This document shows, piece by piece, positions 10,734 to 16,027 of a DNA stretch of 43,179 nucleotides; within the stretch, counting starts at the first letter, position 1, and every line of letters starts with the position of its first letter. The stretch spans positions 1 to 43,179 of the forward strand of contig CAMTVK010000016.1 of the NCBI GenBank assembly GCA_947085185.1, in the 5' to 3' direction. A program made the position numbers and the translations under genes. The notes below the pieces were generated by a model. That model searched no databases. It worked only from the letters and a program-made list of their open reading frames with translations, and was not told the origin of the DNA. Source of the DNA: Candidatus Fraserbacteria bacterium. GTDB taxonomy: Bacteria > Bipolaricaulota > Bipolaricaulia > RBG-16-55-9 > DRXL01.

Positions 10734-11297
10734 ATGTCCAGAATTGGCAAGCAGCCCATTCCGGTCCCTAAGGACGTCAAGGTCGAGATTCTCGCGGATC
10801 GCGTCATTGTTGAGGGGAAAGCTGGCAAGCTCGTGCAGCGCTATGAGCCCCACTACGTGAGCGTGCAGATGGTAGATGGCACGTTGGTTGTGACGCGCAA
10901 GGGCGACGAGAAGGCATTCAAGGCGCGGCATGGGCTGTACAGGGCGTTGCTGGCCAATATGGTCCGAGGGGTGCAGCAGCCCTATACGAAGGTGTTACAG
11001 TTAGTAGGGTTGGGGTATCGTGCGAAGCTGGCGGGGAAGGATTTGATTTTGGAGATCGGGTTCCATAATCCCGTGACTTATACCTTGCCCGATCTGGTGA
11101 AAGCGGAAGTCAAAGACTCTACGGAGATCATCCTGACGAGCCCTGATAAGCAATTGGTGGGCGAGGTTGCTGCGGAGATTCGCAGCCTGCGCAAGCCGGA
11201 GCCCTATAAGGGCACGGGGATTCGCTACAAGGACGAGCAAATTCGGCGCAAGGAAGGCAAGCTCGCAGGTGGTGCCGGTGCGGCGAAGGCCGGGTGA
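10734..11297 (+). CDS. rplF: 50S ribosomal protein L6
   Basis: [40 protein letters not shown]. Confidence 0.99.
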
Positions 11298-11302
11298 GGA
11301 CT

Positions 11303-11659
11303 ATGAGCGTGAAAAGTCGGTATGAGCGACTCAAGCGACGGCATCGGCGGGTGCGCCAGAAGGTCTTTGGGACGCCGGAGCGCCCGCGCCTGTGCGTGTA
11401 TAAGAGTTTAAAGCACTTGCACGCCCAAGTGATCGATGACGTGGCGGGACGGACGCTCTGCGCAGCGAGCACGCTTGAGAAAGGGCTCGCATTGAAGGGT
11501 GGCACGATACAAGCCGCTGCGGTCTTAGGCAAGGTGATCGCCGAGCGTGCTCAAGAGAAGGGGATTCGCACGGTGGTCTTCGACCGAGGCGGATATGCGT
11601 ATCATGGGGTTGTGAAGAGCTTTGCAGAGGCCAGTCGTAAGGCCGGGCTGCACTTTTGA
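11303..11659 (+). CDS. rplR: 50S ribosomal protein L18
   Basis: [32 protein letters not shown] (alternative GTG 11294). Confidence 0.98.
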
Positions 11660-11671
11660 GGGAGGACACCT

Positions 11672-12184
11672 ATGGCACGGCAACGTGGCGAACGCAGGGT
11701 CACTGATGAGCTGAACAACGAGGTCATTGACCTGCGGCGCGTCGCAAAAGTTACGAAGGGTTCAAAGAACTTGAGCTTTCGCGCGACGGTCGTCGTCGGG
11801 GATGGGCATGGGCGCGTGGGATTGGGCAAGGGGAACACCCGCGAGGTGCCCTCGGCGATTCAGCAAGGCATTCGCGACGCCAAGCGCAATATGATCCAAG
11901 TCCCGCTCGTTGAAGACCGCACGATCCCCCATGAGATCTGGGGCGAGTTTAAGGCCTCGAGGGTCTTGCTCAAGCCGGCTTTCCCCGGCACGGGGATCAT
12001 CGCTGGGGGGACGGTGAGCACGATCTGTCGGCTCGCGGGGATTAAAGATATTTTGACGAAGGCCCAGGGGTCGACAAACCCCTTAACGTTAGCTAAGGCG
12101 ACCTTCAACGGGTTGAGCCGGCTGCGGACGCTCGAAGAAGTCGCCAGACGTCGGGATAAGAAGCCTGAGGAGGTCTTGCAGTGA
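11672..12184 (+). CDS. rpsE: 30S ribosomal protein S5
   Basis: RVAKVTKG, VVVGDGHGRVGLGKG, EVPSAI, LLKPAFPGTGIIAGG. Confidence 0.98.
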   Translation: MARQRGERRVTDELNNEVIDLRRVAKVTKGSKNLSFRATVVVGDGHGRVGLGKGNTREVPSAIQQGIRDAKRNMIQVPLVEDRTIPHEIWGEFKASRVLLKPAFPGTGIIAGGTVSTICRLAGIKDILTKAQGSTNPLTLAKATFNGLSRLRTLEEVARRRDKKPEEVLQ

Positions 12185-12663
12185 AGTTGAGCGATCTGCG
12201 TCCCGTGCCTGGGAGTGTGCGCAAGCCCAAACGCGTCGGTCGAGGCAACGCTTCGGGGCATGGGACTTATTCGACGCGTGGGGGCAAGGGCCAGACGGCC
12301 CGTTCAGGGTATCGGATGCCGCCGGCGTTCGAGGGCGGCCAGACGCCTCTGTGGAAGCGCGTGCCCAAGAGGGGATTCAAGAACCCCCAGAGAAAACGTT
12401 ACGCGTTCGTCAATGTCGGCCAATTGAATGAGCGTTTCGCCGACGGTGCGGAGATCACCCCAAAAATTCTTGAAGAGCGCGGGTTGGTTCAGAAATTCTT
12501 GAGCGGTGTGAAGATTTTAGGGGACGGCCCCCTCTCAAAGAGACTGATCGTCAAAGCGCATAAATTCAGCAAGAGCGCACGAGAGAAGATCCTTGCGGCA
12601 GGAGGACAGGCTATCGCTCTTCTCCAGACGCCAAAGAAATCCCAAGGCAAGCCAGGGAAGTGA
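12181..12663 (+). CDS. rplO: 50S ribosomal protein L15
   Basis: KRVGRG..SGHG...TRGGKGQTARSG, FEGGQTPL, PKRGF, VKILGDG. Confidence 0.99.
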   Translation: MKLSDLRPVPGSVRKPKRVGRGNASGHGTYSTRGGKGQTARSGYRMPPAFEGGQTPLWKRVPKRGFKNPQRKRYAFVNVGQLNERFADGAEITPKILEERGLVQKFLSGVKILGDGPLSKRLIVKAHKFSKSAREKILAAGGQAIALLQTPKKSQGKPGK

Positions 12664-12666
12664 GCT

Positions 12667-14349
12667 ATGACTGAGGGGTTGTTTGAGGCATTCCGAATTC
12701 CTGAGGTGCGGAAGCGTATTCTCTTTACGCTGTGGGTCATCATTGTCTTTCGCTTGGGGGCGTGGATTCCTGTGCCGGGGGTAGACCCCCAGCAGATCCA
12801 GGGGATATTTCAGCAATTGGGGCAGCTTGGGCAGTTCTTGAGCGCGTTCACCGGGGGAGCGCTGGAACGCTTCTCGATCTTCGCGTTGGGAGTTATCCCC
12901 TATATTAACGCTTCGATTATTTTGAGCTTATTAGTTGCGGTCATCCCCAAACTCAAAGAGCTCCAAGAGCAAGGGGAAGAGGGCCGCCGCGTCATCAATA
13001 AGATCACGCGCTACGCTACGGTGGGGCTCGCGCTCGTTCAAGCCGCAGGGACAAGCTATCTCATCTATTCTCAGGGGTTGGTGCAAGCGGGCCAGAGCTT
13101 TCTCGGGTTTATGTTTATCTCTATTGTGGCGCTCACGACCGGGACGATGTTTCTCATGTGGCTTGGGGAGCGCCTCACCGAGAACGGCATTGGGCGCGGC
13201 ATCTCGATGCTCATCATGGTCGGGATCTTAGCGGAATATCCGCGATTCTTTGGCACCCTGTGGGTCGAGATCACTAATAATCCCAATCCCATGAACGCCC
13301 TATGGTTGCCGCTGCTTGTGGGGATATACGTCTTAGTTACAGCAGGTATAGTGATGGTGCAGCTTGGGGCGCGACGCATTGATATTCAGTACGCCAAGCG
13401 CATGGTCAAGGGGCGCGTCTACGGCGGCCACAGCACGTTCTTGCCCTTGCAAGTCAATCAAGGGGGCGTGATCCCCATTATCTTCGCGGTAGCTCTGTTG
13501 GCTATCCCCCAGACGATCTTTCAGTTTGCCGAGCGCACCGATTGGTGGGTCAATATGACTGCCGAGCGGCGCATCGTGCTCGAAATATCTGGAGAGAGCC
13601 AAGAGGGGGATCTCTTCATGGACGTAGACGGGCAACTGGTGCAGATCTCGCTCTCTGGGAAGCAGACGAGCGAGCAAATCGCGAAAGCGATCGCTGATGC
13701 GCTCAACCGCCAGAAGCCCGACTCGGCTCAGACACACAGCAGCCATGTGATCATCCCCGTCGAACCCAATCGAGCCCCCGAGAATCCGAAGAGAATCTCA
13801 GTGGGAGAGACGGCTGACAAGCTGATAGCTCTCAATGGAGTAGGCCAAAGTGCTGTCGTGCGCGGCATCACGTTTGTCCGAGCTTCCGGCCGTGATTGGC
13901 TGAACGTCGCCGGCGATCTCTTAAACTGGATAGCCCTAGACTTATCTCGTGGGTACTCGCTGTATATGCTGTTGAGTGCGATCTTGATCTTCTTCTTCAC
14001 GTATTTTTACAGCGCGATTGTCTTCAATCCCCGCGATCTTGCGGAGAATTTGCGCAAGTGGGGCGGGTTTGTGCCGGGGATTCGTCCGGGCAAGCCCACG
14101 GCAGATTTCATCGAATCTGTTCAGAGCAGACTGCTGTTCCTTGGTGCGGTCTTCTTGATTATCATTGCGCTCTTGCCTATGATCATCACGAACATCAGCG
14201 GGTTGACGGCGTTCTTCTTGGGGGGCACCTCGCTGCTCATCGTCGTGGGCGTCGGTGTCGATACGATCAAGCAGATCGAGGCGCACATGGTGGAACGCCG
14301 CTACGAGAGCTTGATCTCCAAGGGCGCAACCCTGGGGCGGCGGATCTGA
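12667..14349 (+). CDS. secY: preprotein translocase subunit SecY with a large loop insertion
   Basis: SIFALGVIPYINASII, WLGERLTENGIGRGISMLI, GVIPIIFA, GFVPGIRPG, GGTSLLIVVGV; 560 aa. Confidence 0.98.
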   Translation: MTEGLFEAFRIPEVRKRILFTLWVIIVFRLGAWIPVPGVDPQQIQGIFQQLGQLGQFLSAFTGGALERFSIFALGVIPYINASIILSLLVAVIPKLKELQEQGEEGRRVINKITRYATVGLALVQAAGTSYLIYSQGLVQAGQSFLGFMFISIVALTTGTMFLMWLGERLTENGIGRGISMLIMVGILAEYPRFFGTLWVEITNNPNPMNALWLPLLVGIYVLVTAGIVMVQLGARRIDIQYAKRMVKGRVYGGHSTFLPLQVNQGGVIPIIFAVALLAIPQTIFQFAERTDWWVNMTAERRIVLEISGESQEGDLFMDVDGQLVQISLSGKQTSEQIAKAIADALNRQKPDSAQTHSSHVIIPVEPNRAPENPKRISVGETADKLIALNGVGQSAVVRGITFVRASGRDWLNVAGDLLNWIALDLSRGYSLYMLLSAILIFFFTYFYSAIVFNPRDLAENLRKWGGFVPGIRPGKPTADFIESVQSRLLFLGAVFLIIIALLPMIITNISGLTAFFLGGTSLLIVVGVGVDTIKQIEAHMVERRYESLISKGATLGRRI

Positions 14350-14353
14350 TACT

Positions 14354-14983
14354 ATGGGTGCGCGGCGGATCGTGCTCTTAGGCCCTCCGGGATCGGGCAA
14401 GGGAACCCAAGCGGTGCGTCTGGCGGAGTCGCTCGGCGTGCCCCATATCTCGACAGGCGATCTGTTGCGCAGCGAAGTGCAAGCGCGCACCCCCTTGGGA
14501 CTCCAAGCTCAACGCTTTATGGACAAGGGCGAGCTTGTGCCAGATCACGTGGTCGCAGAGATGATCAAGAATCGAGTGCAGGGAGCGACGGGCTTCGTGC
14601 TCGATGGTTTCCCAAGGACCCTCAAACAGGCACAGATCTTAGAGAGCGTCACGCCTGTAGATCGGGTCTTGCACTTTCGGTTGGACCGTGCTGAGGTCAT
14701 TCGGCGGTTGAGCGCAAGGCGCGTCTGTCCAAGCTGTGGGCGCGTCTATAATCTGATCTCCAGCCCGCCCCAGCAAGATACTCAGTGTGACGCATGTGGA
14801 GTCGCATTGGTGCAACGCTCTGACGATACCCCGGAAGTGATCCAAACGCGTATCGACGTGCAGTATGCTCGCGAGATCGAATCTATGCTCAAGTTCTATA
14901 GCGCACGCAGCGTGCTCCGCGAGATTGACGCTCACGGGGACATTGAGACGGTCTATCGTGCGGCCCGAAAGGCTCTGGAGTGA
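14354..14983 (+). CDS. adk: adenylate kinase (Zn-LID type)
   Basis: GPPGSGKGTQA, HISTGDLLR, LDGFPRT, CPSC...CDAC, RSDD. Confidence 0.98.
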   Translation: MGARRIVLLGPPGSGKGTQAVRLAESLGVPHISTGDLLRSEVQARTPLGLQAQRFMDKGELVPDHVVAEMIKNRVQGATGFVLDGFPRTLKQAQILESVTPVDRVLHFRLDRAEVIRRLSARRVCPSCGRVYNLISSPPQQDTQCDACGVALVQRSDDTPEVIQTRIDVQYAREIESMLKFYSARSVLREIDAHGDIETVYRAARKALE

Positions 14984-14985
14984 CT

Positions 14986-15804
14986 ATGGCAATCAAGATC
15001 AAGAGCGCAGCAGAAATCGCGATCTTGCGAGAGAACGCGAAGATCTTGCAAGAGATCTTAGGGCGATTGGTTGAAGAGGCCCGTGCAGGTGTTTCCACTC
15101 TGTATTTAGACAGACTCGCGGAGCGCTTGATCGTCGAGGTCGGCGGCCAGCCGGCTTTCAAGGGGTATCGCGTGGGCCCCTATATATATCCGGCGAATAT
15201 CTGCGCATCGCTCGACGCTGAGGTCGTGCATGGCATCCCGCGGGCTGAGAGAATTCTCAAGCCCGGCGATGTGCTCTCTCTCGATATTGGCATGATCCGT
15301 CGAGGATTTTGCGCAGATCTGGCTACAACTGTTATTATTGAAGATACCCCACGCTCGCCGCAGGACTCTCAGGTCGTGCGTGTCGCCGAAGCGGCCCTAT
15401 GGAAGGGCATAGAAGCGGCGCGCGGAGGGCAGCGCGTGGGCGATATCTCCCACGCGATTCAGCGCTATGTCAACGAGCATGGACTGTCGGTGGTCACGAA
15501 TTTCGTCGGGCATGGAATCGGCCGCCAGATGCACGAGGAGCCCCAAGTGCCCAATTACGGCTCTGCCGGGCAAGGGCCGTTGCTGCGAGAGGGCATGGTC
15601 ATCTGTATCGAGCCGATGGTAGCCAACAGCACCAAAGATTTGATCGAGATCGAAGTGCAAGAAGATAACTGGACGGCGGTCGCGCCGGGAGCGACGGTGG
15701 CCGCGCATTTTGAAGCGATGGTTGTCATACGCGAGAATGCCCCTCCCGACGTCCTCGGGATAGGGATATTCGAACGAGTCGGTGTCCCTGTTGTGCAGAG
15801 GTGA
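14986..15804 (+). CDS. map: methionine aminopeptidase type I
   Basis: VVHGIP, SLDIG, ADLATT, GHGIGRQMHEEP, CIEPM, AHFE. Confidence 0.97.
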   Translation: MAIKIKSAAEIAILRENAKILQEILGRLVEEARAGVSTLYLDRLAERLIVEVGGQPAFKGYRVGPYIYPANICASLDAEVVHGIPRAERILKPGDVLSLDIGMIRRGFCADLATTVIIEDTPRSPQDSQVVRVAEAALWKGIEAARGGQRVGDISHAIQRYVNEHGLSVVTNFVGHGIGRQMHEEPQVPNYGSAGQGPLLREGMVICIEPMVANSTKDLIEIEVQEDNWTAVAPGATVAAHFEAMVVIRENAPPDVLGIGIFERVGVPVVQR

Positions 15805-15811
15805 GCGACTT

Positions 15812-16027
15812 ATTGGCAAGGGTGAGTTCATTAAGCGCCGTGGCGAGGTGATTGAGGCGTACCCAGGTTCGATGTTCCGTGTGCGGTTTGAGGACGGCAC
15901 CGAGGCGTTTTGTCACATCTCCGGGCGGATTCGCAAGCACTATATAAAAATCCTCCCCGGAGACAAAGTGACCGTGGAATTCTCGCCGTATGATCTCAGT
16001 CATGGTCGGATTATCTATCGCGAGTAA
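15812..16027 (+). CDS. infA: translation initiation factor IF-1 (probable ATT start)
   Basis: GEVIEAYPGSMFRV, HISGRIRKHYIKILPGDKVTVEFSPYDLSHGRIIYR; SD GAGGTGA 7 nt before the in-frame ATT. Confidence 0.95.
   Translation: MGKGEFIKRRGEVIEAYPGSMFRVRFEDGTEAFCHISGRIRKHYIKILPGDKVTVEFSPYDLSHGRIIYRE

Follow-up and report, generated by a model that had tools for sequence, protein, structure and literature searches.

A SecY with a folded domain in its TM7-TM8 loop, probably acquired from exosortase-associated surface proteins, in one genus of Bipolaricaulota

SecY has ten transmembrane (TM) segments and a cytoplasmic N-terminus, so that the loop between TM7 and TM8 faces outward. TM7 and TM8 bound the lateral gate on one side. 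Two published studies describe PpiD as docking there and holding its domain above the channel (PMC8082313, PMC9643414), and a third suggests that YidC may act at the back (PMC13434473). In Sec61, the equivalent loop, loop 7, was assigned a gating role for soluble substrates (PMC3897919). We analysed the secY gene of a Candidatus Fraserbacteria bacterium (assembly GCA_947085185.1) in a window of 43,179 nt, the whole of contig CAMTVK010000016.1, on which all unprefixed positions below are given. A sequence-only reading of this window had noticed a soluble domain of ~120 aa in the TM7-TM8 loop and had proposed that it acts as a built-in exit chaperone or docking site. Our literature search, which covered only a minority of subscription journals, found no description of a SecY with such a domain.

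The secY gene and its enlarged outer loop

The 560-aa product scored 370.7 bits against the equivalog TIGR00967 (cut-off 253.6) and fell below both SecY2 cut-offs. Its nearest named relatives were a Candidatus Bipolaricaulota record (85%) and bacterium HR07. The gene lies on contig C16 of a 1.72-Mb genome that is 96.8% complete, and the order rplO-secY-adk-map is that of the ribosomal operon (Table 1); SecE and SecG are also encoded in the genome. Alignment with the solved SecY of Thermotoga maritima (3din, chain C) showed a collinear ten-TM core in two blocks, residues 5-287 matching chain residues 5-289 and residues 429-559 matching 302-431; a strict hydropathy scan called eight segments. 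As judged from its sequence, the protein is a canonical SecY with an extra domain. Since tblastn found no other full-length SecY in the genome, we infer that it is active in translocation.

The distance from the TM7 motif to the TM8 motif was 177 residues; it ranged over 49-70 residues in 18 Bipolaricaulota loci that lack the insert and over 52-60 residues in 78 other bacterial loci, confirming that the loop is oversized. The protein is 107 aa longer than its closest relative without the insert (G012 SecY, 453 aa), and the GC content of the insert was 0.58 versus 0.55 in the remaining secY. The insert sits at the loop tip, between two flanking segments that are already present in insert-free family members. 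No 19-residue window in residues 290-408 passed a KD value of 1.35 in the hydropathy scan, indicating that the insert is soluble; this result and the position between TM7 and TM8 in the 3din alignment agree with the proposed extracytoplasmic placement. The bounds first suggested for the domain, residues ~289-408, take in flanking helix as well; the folded domain proper is confined to residues 299-406.

Table 1. Features of the secY locus (positions in the window)
Feature	Coordinates	Strand	Description
rplO (L15)	12181..12663	+	Upstream neighbour of secY; PF00828; standard ribosomal-operon setting
secY	12667..14349	+	560 aa; TIGR00967 over cut-off; single tblastn locus in genome
TM7	13465..13521	+	Residues 267-285; one wall of lateral gate
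N-terminal loop flank	13522..13560	+	Residues 286-298; helix by prediction; homology to the ancestral loop kept by relatives that lack the insert
Beta/alpha domain, probably captured	13561..13884	+	Residues 299-406, 108 aa; homology to IPTL-CTERM surface-protein ectodomains
C-terminal loop flank	13885..13950	+	Residues 407-428; predicted amphipathic helix; in insert-free family members too
TM8	13957..14022	+	Residues about 431-452
adk	14354..14983	+	Downstream neighbour of secY; PF00406
map	14980-15804		After adk; PF00557

Every source is a metagenome assembly, and the insert could in principle be a chimeric assembly or a self-removing element, that is, an intein or an intron. It was found in-frame, however, in 11 further genomes, 12 with the source, and in 44 database SecY clusters. 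Contigs bridging both junctions were found in run X1 (13370-14335), which may be the source sample, and in run X3 of the same study (13469-14107), and one contig of run X5, from a second study, bridges the 3' junction. The contigs of run X4 neither cover 13524-13872 nor join across that stretch and were given no weight. No joint skipping the insert was listed in the four public runs compared. The in-frame copies in other genomes and the junction-bridging contigs indicate that the insert is not an assembly artefact, in answer to the doubts raised with the original reading over sister genomes and spanning reads. An intein would start with Cys or Ser, end in His-Asn before Cys, Ser or Thr and adopt a Hint fold. 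The insert shows none of these features: it is free of Cys and does not end in an Asn-Cys/Ser/Thr motif, its structural matches include no Hint fold, and it has no Pfam match. No Rfam match was found in 11000-16000. An artefact or a self-removing element is thus refuted for practical purposes.

Some family members contain a second, divergent SecY-like gene (L112:1303-2907 in G017, L113:4901-6772 in G006 and, in pieces, L114:5589-6145 in G004). Its SecY match is under the cut-off, its cytoplasmic loops are much shortened, and the SecY-like part is followed by a DUF2007-like domain and more hydrophobic segments; in G017 and G004 it adjoins ileS. No such gene was found in the source genome by tblastn.

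Distribution and conservation of the insert

The insert was present in 12 of the 14 genomes of the genus, equal to 12 of the 13 with a visible SecY; in one genome (G011) the contig ends inside it. The SecY of G012 (95% complete) lacks the insert, and no canonical SecY was visible in G006 (61% complete). Comparison across the phylum, a check put forward with the original reading, recovered SecY in 175 of 184 genomes and the domain profile in 12, all within this one genus. Among the 150 SecY matches listed and read by eye, 149 spanned 1158-1275 nt, and the single longer one (G009) bears the insert. In a 25-row SecY tree built without the insert, with order and class members as outgroups on the non-carrier side, the 12 carriers formed one side of a 99/99 branch. 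G012 and three sister-genus genomes share a short loop, equal in length and similar to near-identical in sequence, indicating that the short loop is ancestral and that the insert was gained once. None of the 12 genomes of the carrier clade has lost it. On the evidence of this tree and these loops, the insert is a clade-wide feature derived from a single gain.

In a survey of long SecYs, whose query lacked sequences from Chloroflexota and spirochaetes, 392 proteins matched; 78 of the best 120 were new, and none of the 72 measurable ones had a TM7-TM8 stretch of >100 residues. SecYs of planctomycete type (P0142, P0153, P0166, P0171 and similar) have 70-150 extra N-terminal residues resembling added TM helices, and in P0143 and P0165 the stretch from TM1 to TM2 is longer by about 60 residues.

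Over 11 genomes the insert had a mean identity of 69%; the SecY core reached 92%, and three other outer loops reached 78%. The median dN/dS of the insert was about 0.12 (range 0.05-0.43; 21 of 55 pairs under saturation) and that of the SecY core was 0.053 (53 pairs), these values being rough since synonymous sites are near saturation. Judging from these rates, the insert is under purifying selection. Most of its invariant positions are common to the surface-protein copies of the domain described below, i.e. they form the fold core, and eight residues (E300, R301, S311, Q326, A339, T356, S358 and R405) are invariant in 16 inserts, whereas another residue is commonest at these positions in the surface copies. 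Seven positions in the SecY core separate 23 carriers from all four nearest non-carriers. Position 275 in TM7 (codon 13489-13491) is V in the source SecY and V or I in 62/62 insert-bearing proteins and 13/13 insert-bearing loci; it is V or I in 0/18 insert-free Bipolaricaulota loci, which have S, A or T there. By alignment coordinates, V275 corresponds to E. coli S281.

A homologous domain in exosortase-associated surface proteins

Exosortases process C-terminal tails of the IPTL-CTERM type. The source SecY found a 166-codon frame in G011 through the insert alone (E 9.2e-9). This frame encodes P0003, a 160-aa stand-alone protein in which the domain lies between an N-terminus resembling a signal peptide and an IPTL-CTERM tail (21.8 bits, cut-off 20.5); its neighbour is an exosortase H gene (93.8 bits, cut-off 86). 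The SecY insert matches the mature part of P0003 end to end, with 34% identity over 105 columns, and the surface-protein copies of the domain have 31-35% identity to the source insert. The broader search profile included surface sequences; as an independent homology test, a profile of 11 SecY inserts only was used, and it recovered 9 of 11 surface proteins with E <= 1e-5 for a database size of 1.84 billion sequences. Of the other two, P0081 reached E 0.003 and P0082 was not significant. The likeness to surface-protein modules noticed in the sequence-only reading is therefore one of sequence homology.

A database search returned four similar small proteins, all with PF18203, and 46 longer proteins with the domain. 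Of these, 44 were SecYs, and the other two were a nested form and a multidomain surface protein of 844 aa. An unindexed search through 1.84 billion representatives found 16 matches, and all seven at E <= 1e-10 have IPTL-CTERM. Four of the nine weak matches have a C-terminal tail resembling a sorting signal, and the matched half-domain lies a short way before it, a hint that surface proteins may have had the module for longer. In a 26-row domain tree, 16 SecY inserts formed one side against ten surface copies (99/99 branch), and the minimum pairwise identity was 26% among surface copies versus 44% among SecY inserts. The tree is unrooted, and the direction of transfer therefore rests on parsimony, one late SecY gain set against many surface architectures, by which the domain very probably moved from a surface gene into secY.

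The source genome contains no second or stand-alone copy of the domain, so that the SecY domain does not depend on one. It also has no IPTL-CTERM match, which 7 of 18 family genomes have, and its exosortase-like gene scores only under the XrtH cut-off (G000:C31:5796-6823); that gene is preceded by one for a secreted protein whose C-terminal tail is of another kind. Comparison of the source insert with six surface-gene loci gave no convincing DNA-level similarity, and repeats flanking the insert were chance-level pairs only. NCBIfam gave no match on the SecY insert, which has neither a signal peptide of its own nor a sorting tail; by these features it is a homologous domain and not itself an IPTL-CTERM exosortase-H target.

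The module also occurs inside other domains. The same host domain is found with a circularly permuted module in one loop (P0078, L131) and without it (P0079, P0051), and in P0050 a permuted copy is nested inside an ordinary copy. These copies indicate that the termini of the module are adjacent and that loop insertion recurs, as expected of a mobile loop-inserting module. The permuted modules (L130:140-928, L131:4947-5246, L132 and P0078) have one common break point, which suggests that a permuted or circular DNA unit may have been reused.

Six exosortase H loci (L115, L131, L145, L148, L150 and L151) are gene arrays in which a near-identical signal peptide and IPTL-CTERM tail frame unrelated ectodomains, likely a variable surface-display cassette system; a Crp-like regulator lies upstream of the cassette array in L115 and L129. 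P0051, whose source is labelled Candidatus Caldarchaeum, closely resembles the Bipolaricaulota cassette protein P0079 and is possibly mis-binned.

The domain was modelled with AlphaFold from 20 sequences. The model (pLDDT 94.7) is beta sandwich-like, with nine short strands and one helix, which bears out the folded beta/alpha domain and speaks against predicted disorder. In the full-length SecY model (pLDDT 59, pTM 0.41) the insert was the most confident part, the rest being too poor to position the domain over the pore; the flanks are predicted to form a stalk of two amphipathic helices. When the domain model was compared with 48,161 chains by VIA-align, the Mu tail sheath (9khy, residues 101-208) ranked first (Z 10.5, rmsd 2.6, 96 of 108 residues aligned), and the A-1(L) sheath (8kee) ranked second (Z 10.0). 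A podophage tail protein (Z 9.6), Pseudomonas aeruginosa flagellin (4nx9, residues 171-275; Z 8.6), T4 gp11 (1el6; Z 8.3), the FliD head (Z 5-6) and the middle domains of CbpD/GbpA (Z 6.2-6.3) also matched the model. No chaperone fold was among the top structural matches. Foldseek ranked the same fold classes, none at E <= 0.001, and ESM Atlas gave, as leads only, unnamed clusters at 0.92-0.95, with a crAss auxiliary capsid protein and Flagellin_IN under 0.9. The flagellar and sheath likeness anticipated by the sequence-only reading thus holds for the predicted fold. At the sequence level, phrog_165 tail sheath matched 9 of 16 aligned members weakly (best E 4e-4; the source insert was not among them), PDB sequences gave no match, and Pfam at E <= 1 gave none on the insert, including SurA_N and parvulin domains. 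In sheath, flagellin, gp11 and FliD, this fold is an internal, exposed appendage domain, which fits loop insertion; a shared fold in itself implies no function.

Possible roles at the channel exit and comparison with known systems

We compared export partners in three insert-bearing and two insert-free genomes. YidC, two SurA_N and rotamase proteins (PpiD/SurA-like, both membrane-anchored), BamA, SecG and SecE were each present in 5/5 genomes, with similar lengths in both groups, and in the source genome SecD (492-codon frame) and SecF (337) adjoin on contig C19. The proposed search for secDF, ppiD and yidC thus found SecD, SecF, YidC and PpiD-like proteins. Neither the presence nor the length of SecD, SecF, YidC, the PpiD-like proteins or BamA changed alongside the gain of the insert. 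A YfgM-type TPR_21 domain was found in 0/5 genomes; both insert-free genomes gave no match either, indicating that this gap is unconnected with the insert. The envelope of the phylum is described, in PMC6092417 and bioRxiv 10.1101/2025.11.21.689855, as simple diderm and toga-like, so that the SecY domain is likely periplasmic.

An apparent difference in YidC between carriers and non-carriers was a scoring split, and the alignment had no matching indel. Of the two PpiD-like proteins, one measures 647 aa. The other, a 1177-codon membrane-anchored SurA_N and rotamase protein (G000:C6:104605-108135), is conserved at a length of 1174-1221 in 5/5 genomes, and its homologue lies within about 6 kb of secY in G013 and G004.

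We tentatively propose that the domain was copied once from a surface gene and serves as a docking or spacer knob that adds to SecDF, YidC and the PpiD-like chaperones. The module would have entered the permissive tip of the SecY loop when a surface-protein cassette recombined with secY, and the domain would now project beside the lateral-gate exit on its predicted two-helix stalk. It might then offer a non-catalytic contact surface to a periplasmic partner or to an envelope layer met by exported chains. We favour this added role, as a possibility somewhat short of probable, over a passenger, a shield or a replacement because the domain is kept in every clade member and has SecY-specific invariant residues. 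Against docking, the insert is less conserved (69%) than the core (92%) and the other outer loops (78%), most of its invariant positions are fold-core positions common to surface copies, no partner changed alongside the gain, and members of the same genus and family that lack the domain get by without it. The first rival is an entrenched passenger, a self-folding mobile module at a permissive tip that has no job of its own and is kept since an unfolded or partly deleted form would harm an essential SecY. Consistent with a passenger, the module enters loops of other proteins, the loop was already longer in this family (up to 70 versus 49 residues), the conservation of the insert is centred on the fold core and lower than that of the remaining SecY, and there is no partner change. 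Its retention in 12/12 genomes of the clade, whose synonymous distances are close to 1 or larger, the several SecY-specific invariant residues and the presumed need to export a 108-residue domain for each SecY made argue against a passenger, which we consider rather unlikely; if true, the domain would be an evolutionary curiosity.

It is improbable that the domain acts as a shield, capping the outer vestibule and gate against proteases, toxins or phage proteins that enter via SecY. What recommends a shield is the V or I at position 275 in all insert carriers, since PMC7858069 reports that two CDI toxins enter E. coli via SecY and that S281F in TM7, the residue aligned by coordinates, blocks or reduces entry. 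The V or I at 275 represents one evolutionary event, however, and therefore carries no statistical weight. Moreover, V also occupies this position in a SecY that carries no insert, the Bacillota-type protein of PDB 5eul, diversifying selection was not seen (dN/dS at most 0.43), and we know of no CDI-type SecY-entering toxin for this phylum. The location at the channel exit and the missing TPR_21 would suit a built-in exit chaperone that replaces PpiD/YfgM/SecDF-type functions, as the sequence-only reading had suggested, but SecD, SecF, YidC and two SurA_N and rotamase proteins are retained, TPR_21 was not found in the insert-free genomes either, and the top structural matches include no chaperone fold. 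Replacement of these functions is accordingly not supported by the gene content and is very unlikely.

Few membrane proteins are as conserved as SecY, which is also essential, and here a whole domain has been gained while the probable donor family still exists in the same genus. Relatives that lack the insert, at about 85% identity, serve as natural controls, so that the capture of a domain by a core machine can be seen cleanly in this case. A folded domain of 108 residues is evidently tolerated in the loop next to the lateral gate and could offer structural or engineering work a natural handle. The case also makes it testable whether the bacterial TM7-TM8 loop can act as a regulatory or docking site, as loop 7 does in Sec61. 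It is doubtful, though conceivable, that the SecY TM7-TM8 loop is a recurrent landing site to which unrelated phyla independently added surface-type binding domains with a real job at the exit; such domains might tether the translocon to an envelope layer or guard it, like Sec61 loop 7.

Canonical bacterial SecY (TIGR00967/PF00344; PDB 3din, 5aww, 5eul) resembles this protein in sequence, in its hydrophobic segments and cytoplasmic loops, and in the position of its gene; 3din has 12 residues between TM7 and TM8, whereas the source SecY has 141, including a separately folding domain. IPTL-CTERM/exosortase H proteins (TIGR04174, PF18203; TIGR04177), some of which, in the same genus, have a mature part homologous to the insert, possess a signal peptide and a sorting tail, while the SecY insert has neither and is anchored in the channel at both ends. 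The protruding domains of phage sheath, flagellin, T4 gp11 and FliD have the predicted fold in common across the whole domain, but identity is low (15-24% for the top four structural matches), and flagellin and sheath genes were found in 0/5 genomes searched. Loop 7 of Sec61 is an ancestral part of that protein and not a captured globular domain. The lumenal loop 7 of eukaryotic Sec61 alpha is the same loop and likewise enlarged (PMC3897919). PpiD-YfgM and the Mycoplasma dome complex likewise place extracytoplasmic domains at the SecY exit, according to PMC9643414 and bioRxiv 10.1101/2025.04.25.650208, but those are separate and much larger foldases, whereas the insert is a small non-foldase domain fused into SecY itself.
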